The notes under the pieces are model-generated. The model did no database searches, was not told the origin of the DNA, and saw only the letters and a list, made by a program, of their open reading frames with translations. Source: a virus. From it: a stretch of 64,000 bases of DNA. This document shows, piece by piece, positions 21,986 through 48,438 of the stretch (within the stretch, counting starts at the first letter, position 1; each line of letters begins with the position of its first letter). The stretch covers positions 1-64,000 of IMG/VR virus record IMGVR_UViG_3300026130_000003, one strand, 5' to 3'. Both the position numbers and the translations under genes were made by a program.

Positions 21986-24900
21986 TTAAATCGTATAGTA
22001 TCTTATAACTAAATTACGATATTCTGTTTCCATTAGACCTGAATACGAACTACCATCTCCGTTAGAGAAATTGATCCTATCTGATGGCACAAGTGATACC
22101 TCATCGATCCACAAATCCACAATGTTTCCGGTGTCTGCATTCTTAAGAATAAGTTCCATGTGAGTACTGTCGATTCTCCTTGCCACAAGTTTCATCCACT
22201 GACCGATGACAACTTTTGATCCTACAAACTTCCCATTAATTCTCGGACGTTGTTGTGAATCAACTAATCGCTCTCTCATTGGGTTTAAACCTAAAAATCC
22301 ATTTAAACTCAACGATCCCGCATCGCCGATACCATCGTTTGTAACACGGAATTCTACTTCGGCGTATGTAATATATCTATCTTCATTAAAAAGTAATGTA
22401 AGTGCCGAAGGAGAACCATTATCATTTATTGACAGAACCGTTCCATCTGTCGAATATTGCGAAGTATTATATGATGCATAATCGTCAAGAGTAACCCACC
22501 AATCTTCTTGTTGTGTAATTACTTGATTTGCTTCGGCATTTTGTATTCGCAAACTACCATATGCACCGCCAGTTGTACTGTAATTACTTTCTGCGTATGC
22601 ATTTGATATTCTCAATTTGGTTGGTGTCGAACTAAATTGCTGTATGAAATCATACTGATACGCATTATTACCGTCCGGAACTGTTCTGAAATATAACGCA
22701 TCATTTTCTATAAACCAATATCCGTTAACATTCGGGTATGTTCCTGTGTCTCCACTGTGAACAAGATTGGCTAGATCAGGGCCGTGATATATTCTACTCT
22801 TGAATGTTGCACTAAACATTTGTCGGGCTGCGCCCACTACATTATCGTTTGAATCTAAAAACTCATAATCAATTCTGTGTTCATCGCCCGTCCAATTAGC
22901 ATTTCTTCCGCCTATTAGATAAATCCAATCAGGATCTATATCAATTGTTGTAGTTCCTGTTTGATCCACTCGTGCTGGGAGTGGTGGTGCTTTATCGTAC
23001 AACCAGACATGATTAATATTACGGTCTAGTATAGGTTTGAAATCTATGTCATAATTCGGGTGATTAGTATCTGTCGGGTCAGCAACGTCACTTGAAGGAG
23101 AAACTGCCCAAACATAAGCAAGATAACCTTGAAGATCATCCATACTTGATGATGATGACCCTGATGACGGTACATTACTAGTTAAAGTAATACCAGTTAA
23201 TCCGCTCTTTGATTGTGGGAAATTATAATCGTCACGGAATACATAAACGGTATCACCACTAGCAATTTCACGATACAAGTTTGTAAACTCCGCTCGCTTA
23301 TTAATGGTCAATACATTTCCGTCTAATGTCTTGTACGACATAAATTCAGTATGTGTGCCATTGTTAATAGCGATAATAACACGGTCTTGCTCAGACGCAT
23401 TACGGAATATAGAACCGTCCGCTACTGTTAATTTATCACCAGTGAAATCAGTAACCGTAGTAACACCATTAACTATCATGCGAAATGCACGTCCCCAATT
23501 ATCATATACTTGGAATTCTAATATATCACCAGAACCACTGTCTGAAATTGTATTGAAAACTGATTCTTTGATATGTGTTGGCATCATGCCTTCAGGGAGA
23601 CCATCGGCTTCACTTGTATACTCATCTATTACACGTAGCAAAGAACCGCCTTCATGTTCATTATCAGTATCAAAATCTGCGTTACCATCTACTCGGTATT
23701 CTTCATATCGACTTTCACGTAGAACAAGTTGTACATGCTCTCCTATCTCAGGTAAGAATGATTTACCGTTGTATGAACCGTCAAATGGCATGTCTTCTTC
23801 ACGTACACCTTCAGTGTTAAAGATAATATCATCCCCTACTATTTTGTAGTATTCTGGGCGAAGTTTGTACATGTGTCGGATGCTAACACCGTCATTCTGA
23901 TACTGCGATTCAATTGTGTTAATTTGTGTTACTTCGTAACTTCTAGTAACTGTAATTTCATCATCTATCGCTGGAGCAGTAACGAATGTAATGGTATGGG
24001 CGTTGTAGTCCACTGTGTAATCTCTATCCAACACAAGCGTAGTTTCTTGTCCGGATTTTATCTTAACTTGTGTCACAACATTAGAATTTGCAGCAATCGA
24101 AATAGTAGCACTTCCATCACTCACAAAAGTTTCTTCAACACGATGAACTTCATAATCACGGTGTTCTTCTTCAACATATATATCAATCTCATGCCCAACA
24201 AGTGATGACTTTTCAAAGTATGACATGAAATTTTCTATCACGTACGGATTTGAAGCAGTGTATTCTTCTTCTATTACAAAATCAGCAACTTCGTACCAAC
24301 CATAATACATGTCGATATCCATATGATGACTGTCATCAATTGATGCTGTGATATCATCTTGTAGTGTGTACTTACTTTCTATATCGCGAATCTTAACATG
24401 GTAAGGTTTTGTCTCGTTGAAGTAATCAATCATATCTTGATAACTATCACGCTGGTATACCGCATGTTGAGCAAGTGGACGGTAGTTGAATATCAAGTCT
24501 ATGTAACTTGTTTTAACTATATCAGTCGCCTCTTGTTCTTCAGTCATACGGTAGTTAATCATTTCAATTGCCATTTCTTTTAACATATCATGTGTAGCGT
24601 AGTACTCCATCATAGTAAAGAATTCTAGTAATTGAATGCCAGTAAAGTTTTCGTAGTAACTTTGTGGATTGCCACTTGGAGCACGGTCAAAGTCAATGCC
24701 CATAGCAGAATCAGTACGATGAACAATTTGTAGGTTACCGTTAAATTCAACAAAGTATTCATCAATCCCATCTTCTTGAACTTTAAATGAAATTACACCT
24801 TGATTGTACAAGTCAATCATATCAAAGGATCTCAAACGAGATAGGTATTGATACTTAGGAGGTTCGATAAATTCTTCGGTTATTGCCCAAGGTTTCAGAT

Positions 24901-27900
24901 AGAATATAGAGTCTTCCACTGTGATATAATTTTCACGAGTAGGTGCGAATCTGTCAATGAATGTGAACTTGAACATATCATCGAACAAACTAGCAAAGTT
25001 TCTTCTTGCTATAAATGGATCGTAGAAGAAATTATTTTCTAGAGGTTTTACTTTGTATATTCGAACTACATCACCAGCAACATAATCACTTGAGTAATTC
25101 AACGTAACCATATCGCCATCTATAACAAAATTGTTAGGCTCTACTATGGCATTGTTCACTGTAATTACAAGTGTGTCGTAATCTGCGCTAGTAATGAAGT
25201 CATATGTAAATTCTATACCGTCAAACCCGTTGTCAATATCACCTTGTGACATTTCAACTGCTACGGAGTCAACGATTTCAATATTTGCTAAATTGTTTTT
25301 AACAATATCAATTATAACATCAGTTTCAGCATTATCAAGCAATTCTGAAATTAGTCGCCATTCAGTATGCAGACCGCCTTTCACATCAACTAGGTCGTAA
25401 TGTAAATCATATTTTACACTACTGTCACCAGTAAAATCATTTTTATGGTTAGTCAATACAATGGTATTACCGTCAATTGGGAAGAACTTGTATGATGTAT
25501 CGTTGTTCACCAACATACGGCGGATATCGTCTACCCTAATATTTCCAGTGTCTTCTTCGAATGCTTCCCAGAAGTAGTACTTGGTAATAGTCTTACCTTT
25601 AACAATATCAAAGTATGTATACTCATTGTAATCCGTCACGTAATCAGGTAGAATGGTAGCGGAAGACCAACGTTTTATTACAATTTGTGAACCTGGAACT
25701 AGACGGCCCCAATTTCTTCTGGCAAAACTTTGGTCTATGTTGCCCAGACGATCACCATAGTCGTTGTAACGATAGTATCTAACTAAGTTAGTGTCCCACC
25801 AAATTTCCCCTACATGTTCTTCATACCATGTATCTTTGTTTGATGTTTCATATTCATATTTTGCAGGGTCTTCCCAAGTAATAAACTTAATATGTTTACC
25901 AATTTCACCTTGGAATTTGCCATTCAATGGATCATATATATGATATCTCTGAATATTACCTGTCCCATCAGTTGTGACTACTCGTTTAACAAGGTCAGTG
26001 TCAACTCTTTCTGATTGTAGTGCAACTGTTGTTACGTTACCTTCTTCTGTGCGGAACAATACTGCCCAACGGTTAGTCGTGTAGTTATCTGCCCAAATGT
26101 AACTTGAACTATTCAAACCTAAATTAGTGTAGAATTCGTTGAAGTTGACACCGTTGTATCCAGGAGTGAAACGAACTGATTTCCAGCGCATAATCTTAAA
26201 GTTAGGGTCTGATTTAGCACTTGTATAATCACGTACTAGACCGATAGAATCTAGTATTTGTTGTGATGTACCGTCAAATGTGATAGCAATATCATCTGAT
26301 GTGAATATCATTCTTCCATCAGACGATACGGATACTGACACACCGACACCCGCAGCATTAATTAAGTCACGCATTACATACGCATCAACGATGCCTCCAC
26401 CGACAGGCGGAGTATAGATGCCTGGTGATATACCAAGGTCAGTCAATGCTGAACCCGATACGTTTGTTACGTCAACTTGTGCATTAGGCGATACAATGTT
26501 TATTACACCAGTCGATGTATTAAAATATGCTTCAGCAATAGCAGTATTGTTTGAGAATACAGCATTAATGTTTTCAACGATTTGTTCATAACCATATTTT
26601 TCAATATCCCCAGTGAAACCTAAACTTTCTAATGTACCTGTGTTAACATTAGATAATTGTATCTTAGGACCTTCTTTATAAATTTCGATGTAGTTACCAG
26701 AAACTACCGAAGCGGTAACTCCAGTTATACTAGCACTATTAATTTGGTTAACCACACTACTGCGAGTAGGTTCTTGAATCGTATTATATGTTCCTGCTGT
26801 AATACCTAGTATAGTAAGAGCGTTACCTGAAATCGTCATTGTAGGATTACCAGATTCTATAACTAATCTGTTACTTGAATCAGTGTAAGACGTTACGTTG
26901 GTAACACTTGAAGTAATGTCACTGGCAATATCTTCAAATTTAGTTCTGCGATACAGACTAGAACTTGTAAATCCAAATCCTGTAGATCCCACAATACTGC
27001 CTAACATTTCAAGATACGCACCGTCAGATTCTACAACCAAATAACCACCACCATTGATAGATGCTGATACTGCAAATCCAGCAGCATTTATACCATCAGC
27101 AATATCTTGTGGTGTAATTACGTTAGCCGGAGCATAGTCAGCAATATCGTAAGTTATTACGTTTCCGTTAATTGTAATTTGCTGAGTAGTTGTAAAGTCT
27201 GCTGGTATGTTAGTAGCCGTAGCAATTACCGGGCCTACTGTGACAGTGGTACCATCTATAGTGATTGTTCTATTGTTAGGAACGTTTGTTGTTTCAGTCG
27301 CAGTTGAAGTTAATCGTATAGAAGATATGCTTGCCGGCTGAATAGTAATAGTCACACCGTCAATTTGGAATGATTCCCCTACTGATGGAGCAAATGCGCC
27401 AACACTTGTAACAGTTAAACCGTCAAAAGTAATATTAGTAGTTGAATTCAGTAGTGAACCGCTTTCGTTGCGAACAGCAATACTTATTTGGTCATTCTTC
27501 TTGACAAATGGTATTGTTCTACTTCCTTCTATTAAAATTTGTACTTGAGCATTTGACTCGGTATATGTCACTGGTGTACCATTGATATACAAATTATCGC
27601 CTTCAGCAAATATAGGGAAAGATACAGAACCTATCGCTTCAACTCCGGTACCTTCAGTTGATGGTGACAATATAGAGTTAGAAGTCGTAGAATCAATTTC
27701 CACAGTAAGAGGCTCATAGTTAGTCTCGAATACTAGGTATTTGTAGCCCGAAGAAACTACACCGTCTTCTACAAGGTAGTAATAACTATTGATTTCTGGT
27801 TCAATGCCATTATCTACAATTCGCAAATATACCGGTTCAGATGTATTAACCTTATTTGTTAAAATTACATACAACTGTCCATCTTGTGTTTCCCCCACGA

Positions 27901-30900
27901 AACCTATTTCTGCTATTTCACTTAGACGAACTACGTCCCAATCACGCACTTGGTCAAATTGAACCCATGCTAAATCACCTTCATCTATATCATCAGAACT
28001 TAAGTCTTCTAGTTGCTGCTGGGTGAATACTTTGTAGTCCACATAACGGTCATCAACATAGCCTGAAGTCTTAACAGAGGCAGTTGATCGTTTGCCTGTC
28101 TGAACCATAGGATATTCTGTATTGTCAAACGTCACCACTAAAGGCTCAGATACCATATTTTTAGGATCAACCGATACTGATACAACTTGTCTAGCATCGT
28201 TTACTCCGTACTCGGCTTCTTTGATAGCCCATACATCACCATGTTCAACTTCGTCAATGTTAGAATTTTTGTTTACTAACAAATTAACACTTTGATTCGT
28301 GCCTTTGTGGGCAATAAATCCTTTGTAGAATTCCATTTGTGACTCAGGTTCTACGCCATGATTCAACAAGTATGTTGACGGAACATAACCCATATGGCTT
28401 GCTTTAAGGTTATTGATAATCTCTAAGTTTTGGTCTAGAATAGTATCACGGTATTTTTCTGTATCAGCAACCAGTGTTTCAAAGTTAGGAATTAGTTTCT
28501 GTTCCGAAATGATGTAACCGTCTGCTGTCATTGTACCATCCCAGCCTACTGTTCTGTTACAGTCAATAAGAACACGTAAATTCCTGTTATGCATTAACGG
28601 ATCGTAAATCACATCGCCGTAACTATCTTCGCGGTCTATTACCATAGCATGTTCAATTTCTATAATATCCATTGCCATACCGTAGATAGGTGTATTAGAT
28701 GCCCAAGATAGTTCACCATCAGTCGTTAAGAATTGAATTTGATTAAGTGAAATTCTGCTACCATTTTGATCAACTACACGATAGAAACCTTGACGGTAAT
28801 CACGGGTAGCACTTGCCACACCGAACGGAGTAGTAAACGAACCAGTTGACAACATAGGAGTTAAAGAAATAAATTCGCCCATGTCATGTTGTTGTTCACT
28901 CCAATCTAAGAACTTTTTCAACAAGTATTCGAAATCGATTAGATTACCATCAGCATCACGGTCAGTAAAGTCCCAACCTATCAGTTTGCTATATTCTTGG
29001 TAACCAATTAATAGATGTGCAACTTGTTGCAATGTTAAAATATCACCGTAGTTGTAAGTTGTCACTGAATCAGTACGTAAGTTATTGTAACCAGTAACGG
29101 TAATTTTATTAATACGTGGCCATTCCCCAAGCATCTTCCAATTACCTGCGTCATCACCAAAGTCTCTACCAGAAGTGTGCGTTTCTAAACAAACATAAGG
29201 TTTGTTATTGTACTGAATTACTTCGTCTTTGCGATAGTAAGTTGTTTCACTCCATGGTTTAAGGTCGGCTTGTTCACCTTCAGTTGCATACACTTTAATA
29301 CCAGAAGCAGTATCCCAATCAAGCGCATAGAAACGAGGGTTAGCGTCATCGTACCCATATAATCTGTAACCTACAGTCGAAACTTGAGGTTGCGAAATCA
29401 TAACCCACGCTGTATAATCAAATGTTAGGGACATGTCAATTTCCGCCTGAGTCGGGCTTTCTACTCGGCGTTTGTAGTACTTACCATCACTTGGATTAAG
29501 TACAATCATTCCCTTGTTGTAATCACCAACATTTGCAATATCATATGTTGGGTATTCAGTATCAAGAGAAACTTTTTCTAGTACGACGGCGCTAAAAAAC
29601 TCAGAACGATTAGGTTCACCTGCGTGTAAGAATATATCATAATTGTCCGATGGTATTTCGCTGTATCGGCTATTGTTTAGACTTGTGTTTTCACTAAACA
29701 ATTTAAAATTGTTTACAAACCCAGCAAATCTAGTACCCAATTTAAATTCATAATTTTCTAATTCTTGCGTTCTAGCATTCACATCATAACCATTACGGGT
29801 ACTAAAGAATGATATTGCTTCTTTAACTGCATTCTCGTATGTTTCAAACGTAGAAAATGGCTGTTGTAGTATCATAGAATTGAATGCTTGGTATGGGTAT
29901 TCGCTACTACGAATCCATGCCATTTCAATCGGAGAACAATCACCAAATTTCCAATTATCAGACAGGTATATAGAATCACGAGTAACATCTATGTCCAAGT
30001 TAAGTAGTTCTTGTATACTTTTTAATTCGTTTGAACTTGTTACTGGTATTGGAAGTTGTGCAGTGTATTCAGTTGCAATGTAATCAGTAAGAGCAATCCA
30101 GAACGATTCCGATGTATAATCACTACCGAAGTTTGTATCAAAGTCGCTAGGTTTATTTGCTAATCCCAACACTGCCCACGGATTATCGAAAATCGTATCA
30201 GTACCATAGAGGAACAGATGTATTCCTCTCCAATGCCCTACGCCAATTTGTGTAAAATTAGAATAGTTCCACGTCTTCCAATCATCAGGATCGTAGTTAG
30301 CATTTACTAGTGCATCTATGTTGTTTTTGTCCATCCATTTCTTGAAGAATGGATACATAATGTAATTTCTTTCGAAAACAGAGTATTCAGGGTTCGACAA
30401 ACCAAAGTTAGTAAATGGTTGATATGTAATAGCACCATTTTCTAAACTAGAAACGTTGTTAAATATTCTACGTTCAAACTCTAATAGAACATCGTCTGTT
30501 AAATCATTGAACATCGGTACTTTAGAACCATCATGTCCTAGTATGAAATTTACAGGAGTATCGTATTCATTGTCGTAAACGATTCTAGGAATATATAGAG
30601 GTGCTAATTCTAATCGTGTCGCACTAGGAGGCATGTACGATTCTGGTTTGTTTGTGTATAGTCTAACTTCAATTGTATCAGAAGAACTAGGTACGTAATC
30701 AGGCGAAAATATAATCTCGTTACCAGTTGCGGAAACTATATAATCTATGTTCAGCATTTTTAATGCCCCGTTAACGTAAACAAACAAGTCCTTATCTTCA
30801 ACTACATCATTTGCCATAGAAGGTAATAGTTGTTCTTGTATGCCGTCAACAACTGAAATAATTCCTTTCTCGTAGTGTACAAATTCAGATCCGAACACTA

Positions 30901-32461
30901 GCATATCAACGCCTTCAAACTGTTTCAATACGGTTGAACGACTAATAGATATTTGATGTAGCACTTCTTCTAGTATTTCAGTAGCCGTCTTGTATTGATT
31001 CGCAGGATCTTCTAATAGTTTTCTAGTTAATGTAATAACCTTGTTTTTGTAATCATTGTACGCATGAGATAAAAATTCAAACGCTTCAATTGGATTATAA
31101 TCATTACGTGTAAGATAAAAATAACCTTGACGAATATCAACCTCGTGTGTTATCATTACGTTACCTTGATTATTGTAACGAATTTTGTTAGCAGGATCGC
31201 CTAGTGTGCGATAATTGTTGTTACCATTAGGTTCACCAGTTAAACCTGGAATAACGTCAATGATGTTAACAAAATGATCGAAAACTATACTGTATGGCAA
31301 ATCCACACCAACGTATGTTTGATTATCTATATTGAATTCTATAGATGGAGGCAACAGTTGGTAATGGTCTTCGTTTATGTTAGTGATAGTATCTTCGGTG
31401 TACAAATCAACATACACATATTCACGAGTTGGAAAATCTAAAACAACTGTGTCTCCATTGAGTGAATAATTACCAAACTGTTTAACACCATTGATATAAA
31501 CATCTATATCATTGATACTATTTGGTGTGAAGTGTAAAGGCAACTCTGTTTTTTCTTCAGCATTATCAAACTGTTCACGGATCTTTCTGAATTTAAATTC
31601 ACACGGTATAGTTATTTTGTAGTTTACACCATCCACTCGGATAAAATTGTTAGGAGTTAGAGGAATATTAAATGTATATTCAGACTGATAATCTCCTGCT
31701 GTCAACTTAGGTCTTAGTTGTAGTTCATCATCAAAGGCTGCGAATTCCTCATCGCCGGTATATTCAAATACCGTAGATATACCAACAACGTTGCTTTCTA
31801 AATCATAAATTTCAAATAACGGCAACTCAAATCCATTGTCAATCTTGTTAAGAGATTGAGTACTTAATTGCATTCTACCGTCAAATTCTATTATTGGTCG
31901 TTTCGCTTGTATAATTAAATCACTGTTCGACTCATTGATAAGATGATTGATATCGTTATGGTGGTACCACGAATTGTTATCAGACCACCAGTTTGAACCT
32001 GCTCTGTCCATAGTAATATATGTTTTGTATTCAGATCCTGGGATGCTAGGATCAAAACCAGGAAGTACCCAGTAATACATTACCCAGTTAGCAAATTTAT
32101 CTTTGTCAATTGGTATGTTAATAGTTTCGTGTTTTTCAGTAAACAAACGGTGATGGTCATTAATCAACGCGCCTTTGTTGTACATGGCGTTAATTAAGTC
32201 ATTGTAGAATATTCGGTCGTTTATAGAATCATTTGAGAATACAGGCTCTAGCGCATAATTTCTACGGTCATAGTTGTATGTTGGGTATGTCACATAGGCG
32301 TCATCAAACTTGTAGATGCCGCCCTCCTTGCGTCCCACAAAGCCTCGCAATTTTTCAACTTCCCCGTCGGAAAATGCTCGCTCTATAGTCGATTCAAATA
32401 TTGTTTCCAAGTTCTGATTCTTCAGATGGCTTGGTAAAAAGTCGTATATTCTTTTAGTCAT
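21986..32461 (-). CDS. Giant baseplate wedge protein (gp7-like)
   Basis: Follows gp25-gp6; N-terminal FLP...LEP...IDKDKF.N...YYW and Y..E.KPYHVK motifs; internal CBM-like and Ig-like repeats. Confidence 0.7.
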   Translation of the reverse strand: MTKRIYDFLPSHLKNQNLETIFESTIERAFSDGEVEKLRGFVGRKEGGIYKFDDAYVTYPTYNYDRRNYALEPVFSNDSINDRIFYNDLINAMYNKGALINDHHRLFTEKHETINIPIDKDKFANWVMYYWVLPGFDPSIPGSEYKTYITMDRAGSNWWSDNNSWYHHNDINHLINESNSDLIIQAKRPIIEFDGRMQLSTQSLNKIDNGFELPLFEIYDLESNVVGISTVFEYTGDEEFAAFDDELQLRPKLTAGDYQSEYTFNIPLTPNNFIRVDGVNYKITIPCEFKFRKIREQFDNAEEKTELPLHFTPNSINDIDVYINGVKQFGNYSLNGDTVVLDFPTREYVYVDLYTEDTITNINEDHYQLLPPSIEFNIDNQTYVGVDLPYSIVFDHFVNIIDVIPGLTGEPNGNNNYRTLGDPANKIRYNNQGNVMITHEVDIRQGYFYLTRNDYNPIEAFEFLSHAYNDYKNKVITLTRKLLEDPANQYKTATEILEEVLHQISISRSTVLKQFEGVDMLVFGSEFVHYEKGIISVVDGIQEQLLPSMANDVVEDKDLFVYVNGALKMLNIDYIVSATGNEIIFSPDYVPSSSDTIEVRLYTNKPESYMPPSATRLELAPLYIPRIVYDNEYDTPVNFILGHDGSKVPMFNDLTDDVLLEFERRIFNNVSSLENGAITYQPFTNFGLSNPEYSVFERNYIMYPFFKKWMDKNNIDALVNANYDPDDWKTWNYSNFTQIGVGHWRGIHLFLYGTDTIFDNPWAVLGLANKPSDFDTNFGSDYTSESFWIALTDYIATEYTAQLPIPVTSSNELKSIQELLNLDIDVTRDSIYLSDNWKFGDCSPIEMAWIRSSEYPYQAFNSMILQQPFSTFETYENAVKEAISFFSTRNGYDVNARTQELENYEFKLGTRFAGFVNNFKLFSENTSLNNSRYSEIPSDNYDIFLHAGEPNRSEFFSAVVLEKVSLDTEYPTYDIANVGDYNKGMIVLNPSDGKYYKRRVESPTQAEIDMSLTFDYTAWVMISQPQVSTVGYRLYGYDDANPRFYALDWDTASGIKVYATEGEQADLKPWSETTYYRKDEVIQYNNKPYVCLETHTSGRDFGDDAGNWKMLGEWPRINKITVTGYNNLRTDSVTTYNYGDILTLQQVAHLLIGYQEYSKLIGWDFTDRDADGNLIDFEYLLKKFLDWSEQQHDMGEFISLTPMLSTGSFTTPFGVASATRDYRQGFYRVVDQNGSRISLNQIQFLTTDGELSWASNTPIYGMAMDIIEIEHAMVIDREDSYGDVIYDPLMHNRNLRVLIDCNRTVGWDGTMTADGYIISEQKLIPNFETLVADTEKYRDTILDQNLEIINNLKASHMGYVPSTYLLNHGVEPESQMEFYKGFIAHKGTNQSVNLLVNKNSNIDEVEHGDVWAIKEAEYGVNDARQVVSVSVDPKNMVSEPLVVTFDNTEYPMVQTGKRSTASVKTSGYVDDRYVDYKVFTQQQLEDLSSDDIDEGDLAWVQFDQVRDWDVVRLSEIAEIGFVGETQDGQLYVILTNKVNTSEPVYLRIVDNGIEPEINSYYYLVEDGVVSSGYKYLVFETNYEPLTVEIDSTTSNSILSPSTEGTGVEAIGSVSFPIFAEGDNLYINGTPVTYTESNAQVQILIEGSRTIPFVKKNDQISIAVRNESGSLLNSTTNITFDGLTVTSVGAFAPSVGESFQIDGVTITIQPASISSIRLTSTATETTNVPNNRTITIDGTTVTVGPVIATATNIPADFTTTQQITINGNVITYDIADYAPANVITPQDIADGINAAGFAVSASINGGGYLVVESDGAYLEMLGSIVGSTGFGFTSSSLYRRTKFEDIASDITSSVTNVTSYTDSSNRLVIESGNPTMTISGNALTILGITAGTYNTIQEPTRSSVVNQINSASITGVTASVVSGNYIEIYKEGPKIQLSNVNTGTLESLGFTGDIEKYGYEQIVENINAVFSNNTAIAEAYFNTSTGVINIVSPNAQVDVTNVSGSALTDLGISPGIYTPPVGGGIVDAYVMRDLINAAGVGVSVSVSSDGRMIFTSDDIAITFDGTSQQILDSIGLVRDYTSAKSDPNFKIMRWKSVRFTPGYNGVNFNEFYTNLGLNSSSYIWADNYTTNRWAVLFRTEEGNVTTVALQSERVDTDLVKRVVTTDGTGNIQRYHIYDPLNGKFQGEIGKHIKFITWEDPAKYEYETSNKDTWYEEHVGEIWWDTNLVRYYRYNDYGDRLGNIDQSFARRNWGRLVPGSQIVIKRWSSATILPDYVTDYNEYTYFDIVKGKTITKYYFWEAFEEDTGNIRVDDIRRMLVNNDTSYKFFPIDGNTIVLTNHKNDFTGDSSVKYDLHYDLVDVKGGLHTEWRLISELLDNAETDVIIDIVKNNLANIEIVDSVAVEMSQGDIDNGFDGIEFTYDFITSADYDTLVITVNNAIVEPNNFVIDGDMVTLNYSSDYVAGDVVRIYKVKPLENNFFYDPFIARRNFASLFDDMFKFTFIDRFAPTRENYITVEDSIFYLKPWAITEEFIEPPKYQYLSRLRSFDMIDLYNQGVISFKVQEDGIDEYFVEFNGNLQIVHRTDSAMGIDFDRAPSGNPQSYYENFTGIQLLEFFTMMEYYATHDMLKEMAIEMINYRMTEEQEATDIVKTSYIDLIFNYRPLAQHAVYQRDSYQDMIDYFNETKPYHVKIRDIESKYTLQDDITASIDDSHHMDIDMYYGWYEVADFVIEEEYTASNPYVIENFMSYFEKSSLVGHEIDIYVEEEHRDYEVHRVEETFVSDGSATISIAANSNVVTQVKIKSGQETTLVLDRDYTVDYNAHTITFVTAPAIDDEITVTRSYEVTQINTIESQYQNDGVSIRHMYKLRPEYYKIVGDDIIFNTEGVREEDMPFDGSYNGKSFLPEIGEHVQLVLRESRYEEYRVDGNADFDTDNEHEGGSLLRVIDEYTSEADGLPEGMMPTHIKESVFNTISDSGSGDILEFQVYDNWGRAFRMIVNGVTTVTDFTGDKLTVADGSIFRNASEQDRVIIAINNGTHTEFMSYKTLDGNVLTINKRAEFTNLYREIASGDTVYVFRDDYNFPQSKSGLTGITLTSNVPSSGSSSSSMDDLQGYLAYVWAVSPSSDVADPTDTNHPNYDIDFKPILDRNINHVWLYDKAPPLPARVDQTGTTTIDIDPDWIYLIGGRNANWTGDEHRIDYEFLDSNDNVVGAARQMFSATFKSRIYHGPDLANLVHSGDTGTYPNVNGYWFIENDALYFRTVPDGNNAYQYDFIQQFSSTPTKLRISNAYAESNYSTTGGAYGSLRIQNAEANQVITQQEDWWVTLDDYASYNTSQYSTDGTVLSINDNGSPSALTLLFNEDRYITYAEVEFRVTNDGIGDAGSLSLNGFLGLNPMRERLVDSQQRPRINGKFVGSKVVIGQWMKLVARRIDSTHMELILKNADTGNIVDLWIDEVSLVPSDRINFSNGDGSSYSGLMETEYRNLVIRYYTI

Positions 32462-32477
32462 TCAATCATTCATCCAA

Positions 32478-35400
32478 TCATTTAGATAGGTTATCTACAA
32501 TATTAATATCCTTAGAAGACGTTACCGCCAAGAATATTTCATCTTTCTCACATGTAATACTTAGCACATCTCCTAGTGTACTTGTTTCAAGTTTAGGATT
32601 AATCTTAACACTTGAAATGTAATCACCCAACTCTGCATGTAGGTATGCGGCTAGTTCTGAGAAATAGAACGTATCGCCAAAGTCCCAGTTAGATAGAGCA
32701 AAGTATTCATTAATCTTAGTCGCAACTGCTGTTTTAGTTTCACTGTTAGTAAACGGTGAACCTTGACGTTTGATTACATCAAAGTATGCCTGATTTTCTG
32801 TATCGGCATACTCACCAAACAAGTACTTAAACTTGACTGGGATATAACTAATGTGGTCTGCAATTGCTGCTTTCGGTTCAATAGACTTCATAATCTTACG
32901 TAGTTCATATGCGTTAGGAGCAGATGGTCTAACACCGTTAAATTGATTAGAAATCCATTCATTAACACGGTTGACATAATCCGTAGACAATACATACATA
33001 TCAATAATGTTTGAAGTGTCAATATCAATACGTTTTTCTTTGTCAGCATAGTGATCCCAACGGAAGCCCATTAGATTATCTTCAGCATACGAAATACCTT
33101 CAACAACTCGGTACGCTGTACTGTCTATAACAATTTGTGTTTTATCTGCTGATAGTGTATAATCCTCTGCTGTAAAGTCATTTAATGCAACCCATACACC
33201 ACCGCGGTTGACGTACCAAGAAACTACTGTAGCAGTATTATCCAGTTGTCTTTCCATTTCAACATAGATTAATGAATCTGGATCGATATCGTTATCTTCA
33301 GTAGATCCGTAGTCTGCGTAACCGTATTCGTACACTCGTTCATAGTCTAACCCTGCAACATTGTAACTTTGTAGTATTACATGTTTAGGGAAGTCTACAC
33401 GTTCATCAAATGATTCTAAACGGTATTCAACTTTCAAGAAGAATTCACCATCATTTGCAGTAGCGTCAGCCAAATCTACTTGTTGATATGTAAACGTAGT
33501 TGCAGTCACATCAGTAACTAGCACATAGCCATTGAATGATGTATCTGTGACGTTTTTAACTTGTACATAATCGCCCACGTTTATACCATGTGCGTTTGCT
33601 GTAGTAGCAACAGTTAAACCGCCTGTTCGAACAAGAGAAACAAGTGCGTCATCTCTAGTTAAACGAATAGTAGAAGAATTGAATTCTACATCGGCATTAA
33701 ACGGCACACTGTCTTTATAAATTGTTGTGTCGGCAACTTGGGACCACTGAGTGAATATATTCACTTCGGATAGAATCCACCAGTTGTTGTCTCTCAAATC
33801 ATAAAATGCTTCTACGCCATTTGCTTTGTGAATCAATGGCGGTTCAGTTTCTCCGGGTTGGAGAGTATCAACAACCGCATTATTTGTAGTGCTACCATCG
33901 GTACTGCTACTAATAATAAATGTATTATCTTCATCGTATTCATACACTTTGGCAACAGAGTATCTTTTCTCTATGTCAAAACCATGCATTATGTCTAGCA
34001 TACCAGTCGGGTTACGGTCTTTAGAAATAGTTGTCAATTCTACTTTGTGATTGTCTTCATGCCCACTAGGTGTCAAGAATTTATCAGCAATGTATGTTTC
34101 AATTTCTTTGAATCGTTCTGTGTATGTTCTAACTCTATCAGATACAGAAATTGTAGCACTTAGTTTGACATGATAGTTATTTAGGTTGTCAGCAATTGTA
34201 CCGACCCATGCGGTAACTGTTTCTCCTACACCAGGATTTGTTGTCCAATATACTGCGGCATATGTATTAGTAAACAACGCCGTTCGGTCAACAAGTTCTA
34301 TATGTTCTTGGTCGTATACTTCTTTTGATAATGTCATCGTATACAAACTTTCTTCATCTAGTACACGATTCAAGTAATCATTTTCATCATATACAAACTC
34401 TATTTCGCCGTATGGTACTTGTTTAAAGAATATGTCATATTGATCATTATCTAACAAGTCAATACTAAATGTTGACATTTTAGGTATTGTAAAGACAAAT
34501 TTCTCGTTTGCAGGATCCCAAGTGGTAGAAAACTGCGTCTGTACACCTTTGTCTCCAGGTTGTGCGTCTTCTATTGTGCCAGGCAAATCAGATTCGTCAA
34601 TCCACATAAACTTGCCTTCATTGCCTGCGCTGTTAAAATATTCTAACGTAGGCTCACCTTTGAAACCTCGGTCAATCAATTGTTGAGGTGTCGCTTGAAT
34701 TGTGTAGAATGAAGGGGTGTTACATGCTGTTAAGTTTTCAACAAGGAAAGACGATGTAGCATTAGTATCAGAAATGTTTATTTCGTCTGAATCTGTTACT
34801 GGATATCCTGAAGTAGGAATATTAATTTCTAGCAAGTCCGAACTTATATCATCAAATACAATATTATCCCAACATACTTGATATTCAGGAGCCTCACCAA
34901 TCAATGTCCCGTTTCCTGTCAATTCAAGTTTTTCTAACAAGAACACAGGACCGAATGGTGTAGCGAGTTCATACTTGTAATCGACTTTTTCTACAATTTC
35001 AGGACCATTATTAAATACTTCATTCTCAAACATGTTAAAGAATGATGCGTTAGTGATACCATCAGCCAATGCAAAGTCAGCACAAATAGTTGCAAGACCT
35101 GTATTTTCGTCTAACGTGTAATTAATCGGAGCATATGCAATGTTTACCTTATACTCAGTTTTATCTGCACCCAATTCACCTGATAACACACTGCCATCGT
35201 TGTAGTTAATAGAAAGTGTATCACGAGTTGCTAGATTTGTTTCACTGTCAATTACAATGTCTTCGTTGTTGTAGTAAAATTTTACTTGATTAGCACTTTC
35301 AAATACTACTTTCTTACCAGTGAATGTAATCTCAAACTTAGAAGTATTTTCACGAGTTCCTGGTGCATATGTTACTAAGAATTGTAAGTCTTCGTTTGGA

Positions 35401-37364
35401 TTTGCATCAGAAACATTCCAAGAATAACTTTCCACATCGAAGAACACATAAAAAGATTCTGTACTTTCATCTGTTAGTTTTTCTTCAATAATGTCAATGT
35501 CTTGTTCTGAGAACTTGGTCACTGGTGCTTTAAACAAACGTGAGAAACCAATAACTTCGTTAATATCATTCTTAACCAGTATACGGTCAAGAACTATATC
35601 ACCATTAATATCAATTGCTTGTGCTTGGAACCATTCACCGCGCAGTCTTAGGTAGTCACCTGATTCTACAAGTTCATGTATGATTGGATTGATAACACGA
35701 CCGCGAAGTGGATCTAATGCATTTGGTTGCCAGTATTCAGCAAGTAGTTTGTCAAAATCGTACTCACCACGGTATGAATAAAAATAGTTATTCAACATGC
35801 TCGGGTGTTTTAATACCTGAACAAGTCTATTGGCAATGAAGTTTCTTGCATCACCTACGCCACGCTGGAACAGCATGGACAAATAAATTTCGTCTTCATC
35901 CACATACACCGAGCCATCAGTGCCTGTTACGTGAATGTTAGAATGGTGTCCGGTAACGTCGGATGCTTCAAAGTATCGTGAATTCCCGGCGAAAGTTGTA
36001 TTAACTGATTTCAGTTTAGTGACAATGTTCGTACCTAAGGTGTATGGAAGAATATTATAATCCTGTCCGTTCACCATTCTATCTTGCGCATAATATGCAC
36101 GAGGTGCTATGCGTCTAACGCTAGTGTAATTTTCCCCTTCAAAATTTTCTGCGAAATCTCGGGTACTTTCAAGAGTTAGCGTTAATCTATAGGATCTATT
36201 ATCAGCCCCCCTATATGTAATATTTATAGAGGCTTCTTTAATATCATTACTATTAACAGAAAATGCTTCATTTTCTACCTTACGGAACCACACACGGTAA
36301 CGACCATATGCAGCATTACCAAAGATACCGTCTGGGTATTGAATACGAATCTGATTGTTATCTGCTGTATGAATAGATGCCATATCACCATTACCATCAC
36401 GGAAAATGTTGTATATAGCAGTTTCACGAGTATCATTGTCTATAACTTTTACTTCATTAAGAACTTTACCGTTGTCATCTATACGTTGAATCCAAACATC
36501 ACTGTTAGAAATGTTAGGTTCAGTAATCACTTCAATGCGATTTGATAGTCTTGAAGTGTAATGGAAATCTCTATATTGTAGGTCTCCTGCTTTAGCATAC
36601 ATAAAGAAACCAGTGCGGTCACTAGATGGTCCTAGGTTATCACTGCGAGATATAAGTGTAATGTTACGCTCAGGATCAGGCATTGCTTCTACTACATCGT
36701 TATCATCAATCTTGGCACGAACTGTTTCGAATGTTCTACCTTTACCAGCAACTGTAGAATTGAACGAGTATTTTACAGATTTGGAATCGTTGTCTTCATT
36801 GAAAAAGAATAAATCAGTTTTTACTTGATTAACGAGTGCTGAACCAGCGGGTTGGTCTAGTTTTGTTTCACCGTCCAATGCAGAGTTAAGAACAGTAACA
36901 AAGTTATCGTACCATGATACATCATTAGGATCGTTCCAACGAATTACACGGTTAGCAAGTGTGTTACCTGTAGAGTCATAAACATCTTCGGTTGTACGAA
37001 CACTTTTGATTTTCATAAAACCACGAGCATTAAGTGGTCGTGTCTTATTGTAGCCTAGAGTGCGAGCCATTCTTAAGATACTTTCTCTGCGTTCTGCTGT
37101 ATCTAAGAAGTTTTCACGGGTATTCATATCCATTCGGAAAGCAAGAGCATGACCAAAGTATGCAACAAGGTCTACTATCGCAACAAATTCTGAACTTGCA
37201 ATCAAGTCGTTAAATTTGTCTGGATATGTTTCGGACACGTATGTTAATAGTGCCTCTCTTATATTATCAAAATCGTAAGCCTTAAGACTTACATTGGTGA
37301 AAGCGGTATATACTGTTGTCCAACTTTCGCCCGCAAATAATTTGTCTACTCGTTCTAGCGCCAT
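32478..37364 (-). CDS. gp6: Baseplate wedge protein gp6-like
   Basis: YDFDNIR...ENFLDTAERRESILRMARTLGY, DGIFG, AQDRMVNGQDY, WDFGDTFYFSEL. Confidence 0.85.
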   Translation of the reverse strand: MALERVDKLFAGESWTTVYTAFTNVSLKAYDFDNIREALLTYVSETYPDKFNDLIASSEFVAIVDLVAYFGHALAFRMDMNTRENFLDTAERRESILRMARTLGYNKTRPLNARGFMKIKSVRTTEDVYDSTGNTLANRVIRWNDPNDVSWYDNFVTVLNSALDGETKLDQPAGSALVNQVKTDLFFFNEDNDSKSVKYSFNSTVAGKGRTFETVRAKIDDNDVVEAMPDPERNITLISRSDNLGPSSDRTGFFMYAKAGDLQYRDFHYTSRLSNRIEVITEPNISNSDVWIQRIDDNGKVLNEVKVIDNDTRETAIYNIFRDGNGDMASIHTADNNQIRIQYPDGIFGNAAYGRYRVWFRKVENEAFSVNSNDIKEASINITYRGADNRSYRLTLTLESTRDFAENFEGENYTSVRRIAPRAYYAQDRMVNGQDYNILPYTLGTNIVTKLKSVNTTFAGNSRYFEASDVTGHHSNIHVTGTDGSVYVDEDEIYLSMLFQRGVGDARNFIANRLVQVLKHPSMLNNYFYSYRGEYDFDKLLAEYWQPNALDPLRGRVINPIIHELVESGDYLRLRGEWFQAQAIDINGDIVLDRILVKNDINEVIGFSRLFKAPVTKFSEQDIDIIEEKLTDESTESFYVFFDVESYSWNVSDANPNEDLQFLVTYAPGTRENTSKFEITFTGKKVVFESANQVKFYYNNEDIVIDSETNLATRDTLSINYNDGSVLSGELGADKTEYKVNIAYAPINYTLDENTGLATICADFALADGITNASFFNMFENEVFNNGPEIVEKVDYKYELATPFGPVFLLEKLELTGNGTLIGEAPEYQVCWDNIVFDDISSDLLEINIPTSGYPVTDSDEINISDTNATSSFLVENLTACNTPSFYTIQATPQQLIDRGFKGEPTLEYFNSAGNEGKFMWIDESDLPGTIEDAQPGDKGVQTQFSTTWDPANEKFVFTIPKMSTFSIDLLDNDQYDIFFKQVPYGEIEFVYDENDYLNRVLDEESLYTMTLSKEVYDQEHIELVDRTALFTNTYAAVYWTTNPGVGETVTAWVGTIADNLNNYHVKLSATISVSDRVRTYTERFKEIETYIADKFLTPSGHEDNHKVELTTISKDRNPTGMLDIMHGFDIEKRYSVAKVYEYDEDNTFIISSSTDGSTTNNAVVDTLQPGETEPPLIHKANGVEAFYDLRDNNWWILSEVNIFTQWSQVADTTIYKDSVPFNADVEFNSSTIRLTRDDALVSLVRTGGLTVATTANAHGINVGDYVQVKNVTDTSFNGYVLVTDVTATTFTYQQVDLADATANDGEFFLKVEYRLESFDERVDFPKHVILQSYNVAGLDYERVYEYGYADYGSTEDNDIDPDSLIYVEMERQLDNTATVVSWYVNRGGVWVALNDFTAEDYTLSADKTQIVIDSTAYRVVEGISYAEDNLMGFRWDHYADKEKRIDIDTSNIIDMYVLSTDYVNRVNEWISNQFNGVRPSAPNAYELRKIMKSIEPKAAIADHISYIPVKFKYLFGEYADTENQAYFDVIKRQGSPFTNSETKTAVATKINEYFALSNWDFGDTFYFSELAAYLHAELGDYISSVKINPKLETSTLGDVLSITCEKDEIFLAVTSSKDINIVDNLSK

Positions 37365-45615: not shown

Positions 45616-46212
45616 TTAGATATACCCCTTATTTCTTAAATTACCCATCGAATAATCACGTAATGAAAATTCACCTCGCACTTTTGCCGGAGCGTATGTA
45701 GTACTCAGAGACAATACAAATGTACTTGATACTGGCAAATATGCAACAGTTCCGTTGTTATCAAACGGTATATAGTCTACATCGTTTTCAAAGTTCCATT
45801 GGAATCCTGCGACTACAACAGGAACATTGGTATATATGTTGTTGATATGCAATCGTAGAACAGGCGGTGGGAGACCTTTACTTTCGTCCTTTTCACCAAA
45901 ATGCATTTTCATTGCCGCTCTGAAAAACTGAGACATATCCAACACTTCTTCTGCATCTAATTCTGTGCGAATAATCATAGGTGCAATCAACGAAATCTCT
46001 GCGTTGGTACCGCTTTGAAATATTTTTTGTTGATAGTTAGAATGCGTCGGATCGTAACTACTGTATCCCGCATCGCCACTTATACTAATGGTAGGCGTGT
46101 AGGGAAAAGATACTTTCCTACGGTTCAATCTGTTGGCGGGGTCGGTTATATAGACCCTTTCTTCTGCTTCTCTGGTTTGGTCGTACAGACTTTTTGGTAT
46201 TGCCATTTGCAT
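45616..46212 (-). CDS. Tail tube initiator / baseplate protein (gp48/gp54-like)
   Basis: FPYTP.I...Y...PTHSNY, G.PPPVLRL, NVPVV, VDYI. Confidence 0.6.
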   Translation of the reverse strand: MQMAIPKSLYDQTREAEERVYITDPANRLNRRKVSFPYTPTISISGDAGYSSYDPTHSNYQQKIFQSGTNAEISLIAPMIIRTELDAEEVLDMSQFFRAAMKMHFGEKDESKGLPPPVLRLHINNIYTNVPVVVAGFQWNFENDVDYIPFDNNGTVAYLPVSSTFVLSLSTTYAPAKVRGEFSLRDYSMGNLRNKGYI

Positions 46213-46231
46213 GTCTCCTATTTCATAGTTG

Positions 46232-46260
46232 TATTTATCTTCGTATAAACTACGAAGTTT
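46232..46260 (-). promoter_or_regulatory. Late promoter GATAAATA with upstream AAACTTCGTAGTTTATACG element
   Basis: Copy of 37752..37780. Confidence 0.7.
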
Positions 46261-46276
46261 TAGAAATAGGAAGTAT

Positions 46277-46386
46277 AAAAAAATCCCTTCACACCGTAAG
46301 ATGTAAAGGGATTTGACTTCAGATTTAAAAATGAGTTAACCACGCAGTGAGAGGTTAAGAGAGAGGAGACACGTTGCTAACTCATT
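46277..46386 (-). ncRNA. Candidate small RNA with CU-rich anti-SD loop and intrinsic terminator
   Basis: Own sigma70 promoter; stem ATGAGTTAGC/GTTAACTCAT around TCTCCTCTCTCTTAACCTCTC; terminator AAATCCCTTTACATC-TTAC-GGTGTGAAGGGATTTTTTT; no ORF. Confidence 0.7.
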
Positions 46387-46392
46387 AATATC

Positions 46393-46421
46393 ATTATCTC
46401 AAATAATGATAGCCCTGTCAA
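46393..46421 (-). promoter_or_regulatory. Sigma70-type promoter of the sRNA
   Basis: TTGACA-17-GATAAT. Confidence 0.7.
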
Positions 46422-46427
46422 GGGTTT

Positions 46428-46604
46428 TTACAAATTATTTTTCTTTTCTTGAATTTCTTTACGGCGTTCTTTTGCTAGTTTACCAATTTCACCCAATGCC
46501 TTGCGAGCACGAGCGGCGGCTGCTTTTACTCCTTTGGTTTCAAATGCTTCGCTTTCTTTTAGGTAAATTGCCATTTGTTCTTCAATTTGTTCGTGAATTG
46601 TCAT
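46428..46604 (-). CDS. Histone H1-like (Hc1 family) small basic protein
   Basis: KG.KAAAARARKALGEIGKLAKERRK; AAGGAGA RBS supports ATG 46604. Confidence 0.75.
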   Translation of the reverse strand: MTIHEQIEEQMAIYLKESEAFETKGVKAAAARARKALGEIGKLAKERRKEIQEKKNNL

Positions 46605-46647
46605 TTTATTCTCCTTGTTTATATGTTGGCATTCCAACATCTTTTAT

Positions 46648-48438
46648 TTATGTTTTATGTTCTAATTCTTCAGTTATATCCTGAGGATCTTCCTGATGGA
46701 ACGTAGTGAAACCATTCTCTTTGGTAACGTTCAATATGTCACTAACACGACCCATCAACTCTTCCTTATGCGATACAAGGAAGATTGACCTATTTCGTTC
46801 TCGGGTCATTTTCTTCAAAATACCCAATGCAGATTCAGCACCATTTGTATCCATACCACTATCCATCAATTCGTCAACAAATAGTACATTGATAGTTGAG
46901 TAAAGTGATTCAAACACATCACGGAATGCCCACGATAGTCCCAGAATCAAACGGTTGCGCTCGCCTCGTGACAAGTTACCAAAGTCCAAGTCTCGTCCCA
47001 ATTCTGTAATCTCTACTGTCAAGTCACTTTGGAATACAACTGAATGTGGCAGTCCAAGTTTGTCAAGATAATATTCGAGTCTGTTGTTCAAGTAACTAAG
47101 GTTTTGGTCTATAATCTTCTTACGTATGAAACTATCTTTACTTGTTAGCAATTTAATCAAAAAGTCTTGGTGATCCTTGAGAGATACAAGAGCATTCATA
47201 TGAGTGTAATCAATTTCTGCTAGTGCGTTTTCTCTAAGTTCTTTGATTTGGTCATCGTATGGATTAATCGCATCTTTCTTACTAGCAATTTGATCCTGCA
47301 ACGATTTCACTGAGTTCTGATGTTCGTATGCCTCAGTAACCGACGGATAAAATGGTTCTGGTTCGTCACCTAAAGTTTCTTCCTCAGCAATAACACCAAG
47401 ATGTTCTTCTAATTGTGCTAAGTCACTGACGGCCTGTAGTGCCGCCTCTTGTTTTTGTTCTTCTTTAGATTTTAGAATCTCTTCCTGTTTAGAATCGTGA
47501 AGTTCTTGACCGCAACTATGACACTTGTGGTCTACGAGTAGTGCTATCTCCGCTTCTAGTTTTTCTACAAGTTTTTCGTTCTTGTTCACACTAGTTTTGA
47601 TACGTTCTGCCCACTTTTTAGAATCGTTGATTTTGGACAGTTTAGCAGTATACACCGTTAAGTCTTCATGTAGTTTTAGTTCTTTGTCAATTTCTATGTG
47701 TGACAATGATTCCAATGCTTGTTCTAATTCTTCAATCTCTGATTTGTGAGTTTTAGTCCATACTTTGGCTCTTCGTTCTACACTCGCAATGTTTTCTAAT
47801 ATACGTTTGTTTGCTTGTTCTTTAGCGGTGAGGTTGTACTCTTCCTCTTTAATCAAATCTTTAGTTTGCTTGATTTGTTCTTTGAGCAAATCTGCCTTAC
47901 GAGACAATTCAGTGATACCAAGAAGTTCTTCAATGAGTTCTCGTTGATCGCCTGCCCGCATACTAAGAAACGGTTCAGTATATGTGTTGAGTGCGACTAC
48001 GTGCTTAAACATTGTATGCGAAATACCAATGATAGAATCTACTTCTACTTGTGTTTCTCGCATTTCGCCTTGTGCGTGGTCTTCACCGTTCATATCTATA
48101 CCGTCTTTTAGAAAACGGAATACATTGGGAGAACGACCGCGCTCTAGACGATATTCGTCACCGTTATATTCAAAATCAACAGTAACAAGCATGTTCTTAC
48201 CGTTAGTCTTGTTGATAAGGTTGTTTTTCTTAATATCTGACAATGCGTTACCATACAATGCATATGATAGAGCATTAATGAGTGTAGTCTTACCAGTACC
48301 GTTTCGACTACCATCACCACCTAAGTCAACGTTGTTGCCCAATACCAAGGTTAGATTCTGTCTATTAAGGTCTATAACTTGTGTAACGTTACCAACGGAT
48401 AAGAAGTTACGAATGGTTATGTTCTTAATCTTTAGCAC
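46648..48438 (-). CDS. gp46: Recombination endonuclease ATPase subunit (SbcC/Rad50-like)
   Basis: NGTGKTT Walker A, CHSCG zinc hook, LSRGE signature, FVDE Walker B, VSH. Confidence 0.95.
   Translation of the reverse strand: MLKIKNITIRNFLSVGNVTQVIDLNRQNLTLVLGNNVDLGGDGSRNGTGKTTLINALSYALYGNALSDIKKNNLINKTNGKNMLVTVDFEYNGDEYRLERGRSPNVFRFLKDGIDMNGEDHAQGEMRETQVEVDSIIGISHTMFKHVVALNTYTEPFLSMRAGDQRELIEELLGITELSRKADLLKEQIKQTKDLIKEEEYNLTAKEQANKRILENIASVERRAKVWTKTHKSEIEELEQALESLSHIEIDKELKLHEDLTVYTAKLSKINDSKKWAERIKTSVNKNEKLVEKLEAEIALLVDHKCHSCGQELHDSKQEEILKSKEEQKQEAALQAVSDLAQLEEHLGVIAEEETLGDEPEPFYPSVTEAYEHQNSVKSLQDQIASKKDAINPYDDQIKELRENALAEIDYTHMNALVSLKDHQDFLIKLLTSKDSFIRKKIIDQNLSYLNNRLEYYLDKLGLPHSVVFQSDLTVEITELGRDLDFGNLSRGERNRLILGLSWAFRDVFESLYSTINVLFVDELMDSGMDTNGAESALGILKKMTRERNRSIFLVSHKEELMGRVSDILNVTKENGFTTFHQEDPQDITEELEHKT

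Follow-up and report, generated by a model that had tools for sequence, protein, structure and literature searches.

The stretch of DNA analysed here, referred to as the window, comprises 64,000 nucleotides (nt) and corresponds to positions 1 to 64,000 of the IMG/VR virus record IMGVR_UViG_3300026130_000003. The source record has 72,016 bases and an estimated completeness of 20%, and it represents part of the genome of a jumbo myophage, a distant relative of T4. On its minus strand, between 46421 and 46277, lies a promoter followed by a structured region of about 110 nt and a terminator, which together almost certainly constitute a real and conserved non-coding RNA gene. This small RNA (sRNA) gene is previously uncatalogued, and it is carried by a lineage of jumbo phages, uncultured so far, from freshwater and marine habitats. 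All the genes around the unit are on the minus strand; upstream, in this order, are those for a gp55-like late sigma factor, SbcD, an open reading frame (ORF) of 74 amino acids (aa), SbcC and a 58-aa Hc1-like protein, and downstream is a baseplate module encoding a virion protein, a wedge subunit, a gp5-like hub, gp25-like and gp6-like proteins and a 3491-aa protein. The sRNA terminator also closes the upstream gp55/SbcD/SbcC/Hc1-like transcription unit. A preliminary description, made from the sequence of the window, had proposed a sigma-70 promoter, an ORF-less unit of about 110 nt, a long stem and a strong terminator at this place, and each of these elements was found on the minus strand:

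46421-46393, minus strand: sigma-70-type promoter, with TTGACA at 46421-46416, a 17-nt spacer and TG-n-GATAAT at 46401-46393
~46386-46277, minus strand: ORF-less RNA body of ~110 nt, predicted from the start base to the end of the U run
46386-46330, minus strand: stem-loop 1, with arms at 46386-46371 and 46345-46330 (11 + 4 pairs)
46370-46346, minus strand: CU-rich loop of 25 nt, UGUCUCCUCUCUCUUAACCUCUCAC, unpaired in the folds
46370-46346, minus strand: pyrimidine-rich loop blocks (G)UGUCUCCUCU and AACCUCUC, as defined by alignments, with a 4-nt insertion between the blocks in the window
46329-46315, minus strand: AU-rich single-stranded linker UUUUAAAUCUGAAGU, from individual folds
46314-46277, minus strand: intrinsic terminator, with a 15-pair stem at 46314-46281 and U7 at 46283-46277, the first three U being paired in the stem

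In a consensus scan, 11/12 positions of the promoter agree and the -10 element is of the extended (TG) type; promoters of such a score occur at three sites within 10 kb, that of the sRNA included. The predicted transcription start, near A46386, lies 7 bases past the -10 element and coincides with the first base of the hairpin. Reading frames inside the RNA are trivial (ATG AGT TAG and a 5-codon GTG frame), and no tRNA was detected by ARAGORN. The minimum free energy of the RNA is -36.9 kcal/mol as compared with -18.2 +/- 2.9 in shuffled sequences (z = -6.4; 0/200 as stable), and for the loop bases CUCCUCUCUCUUAACCUCUC (46368-46349) the probability of being unpaired is 0.97 or more. In silico, the unit has the features expected of an independent transcription unit, namely its own promoter, a Rho-independent terminator and the absence of an ORF. 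A cis-antisense arrangement was not found, as only short unsupported plus-strand frames overlap the unit. The RNA also has its U7 tail and AU-rich linker, Hfq-dependent RNAs being those that bind Hfq by way of a 3' U-tail and U/A-rich sites.

Conservation of the RNA gene in freshwater and marine phages

The feature stands above chance because it is conserved in relatives, and not because of its pairing. When the unit was compared by BLAST with the whole records of three relatives, only the loop matched, in two of them (G002 and G003). G002 is 342.6 kb long with terminal repeats, and together with G001 it represents two complete genomes of ~342 kb. The layout is shared by G002 and G003: the Hc1-like gene is followed by the promoter TTGACA-17-TATTAT, then by a hairpin whose arms differ from those in the window and whose loop reads GUGUCUCCUCUCAACCUCUCUCA, and finally by a short second hairpin and a terminator. 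In individual folds, this second hairpin of the marine relatives is missing from the window RNA, which has the linker in its place. A gapped search for the loop pattern identified 48 viral loci, of which 43 are full promoter-hairpin-terminator units and five were discarded as chance matches within coding DNA. Homologues are carried by at least 50 viral contigs and their promoter spacing is alike. In 44/44 members, the window included, the promoter has at least 10/12 matches and the distance from the end of the -10 element to the loop core is 22-30 nt, so that the transcription start falls at the base of the stem. A GC-rich terminator is seen in individual folds at the corresponding place in every relative.

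A covariance model (R1), built from 14 marine sequences with the window left out, finds its sole match in the window at 46278-46386 on the minus strand (35.4 bits, E ~8e-5). Since loci selected by their loop are partly circular as evidence for loop identity, members were sampled independently, through the Hc1-like protein and from whole records. In the Hc1-based sample (80 loci of 456 relatives) the model matched seven known and three divergent members, and two further members (L388 and L391) were recognised by eye, while whole-record sampling added G007, G008, G010 and G011. These last four, along with L380 and L382, were found by the model and not by the loop pattern. Among the variants so far seen, the loops of G007 and G008 have one A fewer between the blocks, that of G011 reads AUGUCUCCUCUAAACCUCUCUCA, the G010-type loop reads UUGUUACCCUCUCAACUCUCA, the L171-type loop has two extra bases and the window loop has four. 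Insertions and deletions of 1, 2 and 4 nt in the loop, together with the lack of a conserved frame, speak against a coding role.

The loop blocks UGUCUCCUCU and AACCUCUC are nearly fixed across the relatives while the stem arms covary. Among 28 distinct sequences, 93% of the stem cells are paired and compensatory changes on both sides are seen in 11/12 pairs, with a covariation score of 0.557 as compared with 0.174 in shuffles (0/500 as high); slid registers are 31-53% paired. A plain MAFFT alignment left the arms out of register, so that RNAalifold predicted no pairs on it, and model-based alignments were therefore used. The RNA presents a conserved, accessible single-stranded seed within a covarying structure. 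The preliminary description had held that a loop without conservation would speak against its proposal; the near fixation of the blocks, along with the RNA's own promoter and terminator, upholds in silico its claim of a stand-alone small RNA gene with an exposed CU-rich loop. There is one copy per genome in G001 and G002, and an additional weak match in G001 (23.5 bits, E 0.1) was taken as probable chance.

Searches further afield were negative. The exact 20-mer of the marine loop had no match in bacterial genome contigs, the model had none at E <=0.005 among 61 bacterial Hc1 loci (two weak ones were seen), and the RNA was not found after the gene in two GenBank marine virus records with an Hc1 homologue. 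Comparison of the region with 50,697 phage records showed no similarity at the DNA level in either near or distant mode, and a marine member had no DNA match in the phage collection either. No family of Rfam 15 (C4 antisense RNA, Yfr1 and RsaE among them, as far as the library has them) reached its gathering score in the 64-kb window, and the relatives gave sub-threshold matches only, in five loci; four marine relatives scored 21.8-27.4 bits for RF02278, whose gathering score is 50, and they are not counted as its members. No description of this RNA family was found in the literature, supplementary tables lying outside the search.

As a separate observation, the region from stem-loop 1 to the terminator contains another conserved sequence, CAACACAGAG(A/C), in marine members (e.g. 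L170, L180 and L190). This sequence sits in a short hairpin with a pairing register that varies among sublineages, and it is absent in the window. The AGAGAG of this hairpin might pair with CUCUCU of the loop in a self-masking arrangement.

Pairing potential of the loop and candidate targets

The loop blocks contain CUCCU and ACCUC, which are overlapping halves of ACCUCCU, the core of the 3' end of 16S rRNA (as read at the E. coli end), and they are complementary to AGGAGA, GAGAGG and GAGGUU. Duplexes with a predicted energy of -16 kcal/mol or lower were found in 23/460 start regions of G001 and 20/435 of G002, as against 35/3424 and 42/3184 internal sense windows, respectively, and strong predicted sites are 3-6 times denser at start regions than in coding interiors in these genomes. 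In G001, the real loop has 23 strong start-region sites compared with 11.8 +/- 5.5 for composition-matched shuffles (5/150 as high), and its fifth-best energy was matched by 0/150 shuffled loops. Pairing with Shine-Dalgarno (SD) regions in general is plausible. Strong sites are in excess near sigma-70 promoters in G001 (6/23 versus 29/437, p = 0.005), but this was not repeated in G002 (3/20 versus 47/415). Ribosomal RNA was rejected as a partner, the longest helices with E. coli 16S, 23S and 5S being 7-9 nt, at about the number expected by chance. The output of an RNAduplex scan of the whole contig was dominated by long interior loops.

The reading that we favour, with a probability of about 0.55, is that of a conserved single-copy sRNA gene whose product would likely act in trans by anti-SD pairing; that the RNA acts by such pairing, considered by itself, is given even odds. 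Transcription by the host RNA polymerase with sigma-70 would begin at ~46386 and end near 46277, producing an RNA of ~110 nt, perhaps early in infection, a timing suggested solely by the type of promoter. The 5' end would be buried in the long stem, and the stem would hold the 25-nt pyrimidine loop open, such that blocks UGUCUCCUCU and AACCUCUC could pair with purine-rich SDs (AGGAGA, GAGAGG, GAGGUU) of phage and/or host messenger RNAs (mRNAs). Such pairing may block binding of the 30S subunit and lower translation. If ribosome-binding sites are indeed masked in this manner, the phage would possess a compact RNA tool for translational control in lytic infection, and the loop would be a ready-made seed for reporter assays.

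In the search for a conserved target, the best candidate, as yet unproven, is the start region of SbcC:

48453-48436, minus strand: start region of SbcC (gp46-like), UAAGAGAGGA then GTG 48438

Here many of the 47 distinct sequences, which come from 98 of the 160 baseplate loci described below, share GCAAGAGAGAGGUAA followed by UUG, most of the others being shorter by GA, and GCAAGAGAGAGGUAA pairs over 9 nt with ACCUCUCUC of the loop. The version in the window, UAAGAGAGG, pairs with UCUCUCUUA, which derives partly from the window's own loop insertion. As regards the gene itself, SbcC starts with GTG or TTG behind the purine run GCAAGAGAGAGGUAA (48470-48436 in the window), which seems to code for the final residues and the stop of an upstream small ORF as well; the fixed choice of AGA-GAG-AGG codons at this run suggests selection at the nucleotide level.

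Longer matches occur in single genomes. In G002 a perfect 13-nt match, AGAGGAGACACUU, abuts the ATG of a predicted membrane protein of 196 aa (L217, 4132-4722, minus strand); relatives of its gene number more than 590 and are spread over very diverse viral contigs. The gene itself is absent from 5/5 other large records of the lineage, and therefore the match cannot explain the conservation of the loop. An 11-nt match before a 121-aa ORF of G002 was set aside, being only partly kept in G003. Between the loop and the start of the Hc1-like gene the match is limited to the SD (AAGGAGAA in the window, AGGAG in G002).

A number of results weigh against action by anti-SD pairing. The excess over shuffled loops is weak in G002, where 12/150 shuffles gave as many strong sites, and it is weak to absent in the window, where this held for 16/150 shuffles (61 genes). 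The mean duplex energy over the 61 start regions of the window is -8.1 as compared with -7.4 +/- 0.6, and 13/100 shuffled loops were as low; start-region pairing in the window, taken alone, is not beyond chance in a 72-kb fragment. It is not obvious that a generic anti-SD sequence should require ~20 nearly fixed bases, which fit a protein-binding site too, and the invariance of the loop is partly a matter of ascertainment in the 43 loci, which were selected by the exact loop pattern. The phage's own genes share the same SD types, so that an abundant anti-SD RNA would hit phage mRNAs as well. The runs containing the sequence are three DNA runs, labelled as freshwater metagenome, and 0 RNA runs. 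Among 130 ortholog pairs of G001 and G002 no target was significant (Bonferroni p 0.34). SbcC, at the top of the joint ranking of window and G002 (product 0.00057), has p ~0.17 after 35 tests, and when loops and SbcC start regions were swapped among seven lineages no clear cognate preference appeared, on which ground SbcC was rejected as a co-evolving target. The anti-SD loop of the preliminary description hence holds as far as complementarity to SDs and the enrichment of strong sites at start regions are concerned, but no conserved target is significant.

Alternative explanations

One explanation, unlikely but deserving of attention, is that the loop is a high-affinity protein site and that the RNA titrates or recruits the protein concerned. 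Candidate partners are ribosomal protein S1, Hfq, an RNase, a host defence protein and the adjacent Hc1-like protein. Such a role fits the near fixation of ~20 nt, beyond the 5-6 nt that an SD match calls for, in phages where the neighbouring structural protein is only 38-53% identical to that of the window, as well as the failure to find a specific conserved mRNA target. The Hc1-like gene adjoins the RNA in 28/43 loci and in the window, the homologue (74-88% identity) ending just 5' of the RNA, and chlamydial Hc1 is said, in the title of a 1994 article by Pedersen, to bind RNA as well as DNA. However, no motif of a known protein-binding type was recognised in the RNA, be it the GGA repeats of CsrB-type sponges or A-R-N repeats, another protein-binding motif, and the loop occurs once per RNA where sponges usually repeat the site. 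With regard to Hc1 in particular, most Hc1 loci are without the RNA: among phage loci the model matched 10/80 sampled at E <=0.1, to which L388 and L391 are added by eye, and among bacterial loci 0/61 at E <=0.005. Conversely, the upstream Hc1-like gene is missing at 15/43 RNA loci. The linkage between Hc1 and the RNA may be simple synteny. Should the partner be a protein after all, the fixed loop would constitute a defined bait for finding it.

The Hc1-like gene merits some description in its own right:

46428-46604, minus strand: Hc1-type histone H1-like protein of 58 aa (PF07432, E = 6e-12, above the Pfam cut-off), start ATG 46604, stop 46430-46428
46406-46684, plus strand: frame of 92 aa, antisense to the Pfam-supported Hc1-like gene and not kept in relatives

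The protein is unusually conserved, with 74-88% identity to marine relatives versus 38-53% for the structural neighbour, and its relatives are encoded on at least 456 viral stretches. Chromosomal homologues occur in Nitrospinaceae (62-75% identity), others being found in Spirochaetales metagenome-assembled genomes, and in other phage lineages a cold-shock-like gene follows the Hc1-like gene.

It is rather improbable, in our estimate, that the RNA is an early and abundant mimic of the 16S rRNA 3' end which competes with ribosomes for strong SDs transcriptome-wide, perhaps with the Hc1-like protein as its chaperone. Were it so, the phage would re-programme initiation, either for host shut-off or for the timing of its own mRNAs, and a widespread aquatic jumbo-phage lineage would have in this RNA a device for controlling translation in general, and not a regulator of one target.

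A cis-acting role is more doubtful still. The unit would be the 3' end of the gp55/SbcD/SbcC/Hc1-like operon, acting mainly as its terminator and 3' untranslated region, with the loop folding back above all onto the SbcC start and the inner promoter adding copies. There is no terminator between the Hc1-like gene and the unit, so that read-through transcripts would carry it. The order SbcC, Hc1-like gene, RNA is common to the window and G002 (in G002 the RNA lies 3' of SbcC, an 85-aa ORF and the Hc1-like gene), and both the recurrent 9-nt pairing and the top joint rank of SbcC, as described above, are in keeping with it. Nevertheless, in 44/44 members a strong promoter is retained, and its distance is constant, with the start on the first base of the stem, which points to an independent transcript. 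The SbcC purine run doubles as C-terminal codons of the upstream ORF and as an SD, G007 and G008 retain the RNA with an SbcC start that lacks GAGAGAGG, and the swap matrix gives no sign of co-variation.

The preliminary description had favoured an early sRNA that restrains the translation of late genes, in the first place the baseplate operon just downstream, through pairing of GUGUCUCCU with AGGAGACAU; we regard this as quite unlikely. The features concerned are:

46258-46231, minus strand: late-type promoter motif ACUUCG...GATAAATAC, 3' of the sRNA terminator (GATAAATAC at 46239-46231, ATAAATA at 46238-46232)
46219-46204, minus strand: start region of the first baseplate-module gene, with SD AGGAG at 46219-46215, AGGAGACAU at 46219-46211 and the likely ATG at 46206-46204
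46194-46316, plus strand: frame of 40 aa, short, unsupported and not kept in relatives

The 9-nt match does exist, as eight Watson-Crick pairs and one G-U, but it is not kept in G002, where the start reads AAGGAGUUAAACAUG and the extension beyond the SD is absent. The element AGGAGACAU had been taken for the ribosome-binding site and start of a gene at 46212. The SD is indeed part of it; the database form of the protein (P0001), identical to the window ORF over the shared region, has 196 aa, which makes ATG 46206 the likely start, and the element is therefore SD plus spacer and not SD plus start. The sequence AGGAGAC, as had been stated, precedes the genes starting at 39113, 17716, 61510 and 62993, in addition to that at 46212/46206. 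SDs of the AGGAG type followed by AC make up 5/10 in the window versus 6/76 in G002, a post hoc comparison which agrees with the late-gene proposal; the excess of AGGAGAC could be co-adaptation to GUCUCCU of the sRNA or small-sample chance. Likewise in its favour, the ATAAATA of the operon lies 3' of the sRNA terminator and the sRNA has a promoter of the kind used by host sigma-70.

Against this, the adjacency to the baseplate gene is peculiar to this contig. Relatives of the 196-aa protein were aligned and 160 of their loci with up to 3 kb of upstream sequence were collected; the sRNA unit was found upstream of the homologous baseplate gene in 0/160 of these loci (blastn-short and nhmmer, <=3 kb), so the conservation upstream of the gp53 operon proposed as a check is not observed. 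In the relatives inspected, the gene 5' of the baseplate gene is transcribed divergently. In G002 the RNA is ~4.9 kb from the baseplate gene and on the opposite strand, and the adjacency in the window is hence a local rearrangement. The GUGUCUCC block is altered to UUGUUACCC in the G010-type variant, and genes with the late motif are not enriched among the strong sites of G001 (3/23 versus 45/437), of G002 (1/20 versus 46/415) or of the window, leaving no sign of the supposed preference for late genes. In the relatives, the motif ACUUCG..(C/A/T)GATAAATAC occurs 20-29 nt before the start of the baseplate gene, with ATAAATA in 142/153 loci, and is similar to the late promoter of T4, TATAAATA. 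The baseplate operon therefore has its own conserved promoter and does not have the sRNA as a leader. Several further structural genes of the window are likewise preceded by the word ATAAATA (e.g. at 39151, 9346 and 7961).

Finally, a transcribed leader or attenuator governing read-through downstream, or else a DNA-level site, is very improbable: a promoter, structured RNA, terminator and genes in succession would make an attenuator layout too, one shared by the put-type antitermination RNAs, but the downstream genes vary by lineage, several of them being preceded, immediately past the terminator, by a late-type promoter of their own, strong terminators are present in all members, and covarying arms, a fixed core and a fixed promoter distance fit an RNA instead of a DNA site.

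Some further observations concern the phage lineage and the downstream genes. The T4-type features of the lineage include the gp55-like late sigma factor, SbcCD and a T4-type baseplate. The 3491-aa ORF (21986-32461, minus strand), which directly follows the 1628-aa gene for a gp6-like baseplate wedge protein (32478-37364, minus strand), had suggested an N4-like phage; this was rejected, as PHROG matches and relatives are T4-type and jumbo. Protein relatives in cultured phages have less than 60% identity and all belong to jumbo phages (e.g. SCTP-2 and PA5oct). Just past the sRNA terminator of G002 (L162, 1621-1812, plus strand) is a lysine-rich ORF of 63 aa, which is conserved at this place in many marine members and which the contig of the window lacks. 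At 26.8 bits, the match of this ORF to the SutA RNA-polymerase-binding domain stays below the cut-off of 29.3.

Comparison with known systems

RNAs with comparable loops are known from bacteria. Double-hairpin RNAs of Burkholderia are described as having unpaired CU-rich loops complementary to ribosome-binding sites, with 55-80% of their predicted interactions around start codons (PMC5688073). Like the 'toxic' sRNAs of RF02278 (ncS03, ncS05, ncS27, ncS62) and the NmsRs of Neisseria, the RNA of the window is short, extends from promoter to terminator and has CU-rich stretches complementary to ribosome-binding sites, and RF02278 is the best, albeit sub-threshold, Rfam match of its relatives. Unlike RF02278, it is phage-encoded, with one long stem, a single loop of 21-25 nt and no similarity beyond pyrimidine richness.

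A small RNA and an Hc1-type gene also come together in Chlamydia, where the sRNA IhtA represses translation of hctA, the gene for Hc1. The present system differs from this pair, as the loop meets the start of the Hc1-like gene only at the SD and Hc1-like genes mostly occur without the RNA. Hc1-like genes have been noted in another lineage of large aquatic phages (PMC12619734), in an article where a word search gives 0 occurrences of 'small RNA' and two of 'sRNA'.

What is added here is a structured, strongly promoted RNA, one per genome, that is present in 50 or more contigs from uncultured jumbo phages of fresh and marine waters. To our knowledge, the phage small RNAs studied so far are almost all from temperate phages or prophages. 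By word search, the terms 'jumbo', 'phage T4' and 'lytic phage' are absent from the main text of a 2025 review of phage-derived sRNAs (PMC12197685). The same review describes the c4 RNA of P1/P7, which pairs around a ribosome-binding site and blocks translation (PMC12197685). Judging by sequence, the RNA of the window would resemble c4 in being a phage-borne small RNA with a loop complementary to ribosome-binding sites. DicF is likewise a phage regulatory RNA that pairs at a ribosome-binding site, and the same is reportedly true of PreS of lambda. While c4, DicF and PreS belong to temperate phages or prophages and have one defined target each, the RNA of the window belongs to large, apparently lytic T4-type phages and carries a generic anti-SD seed.

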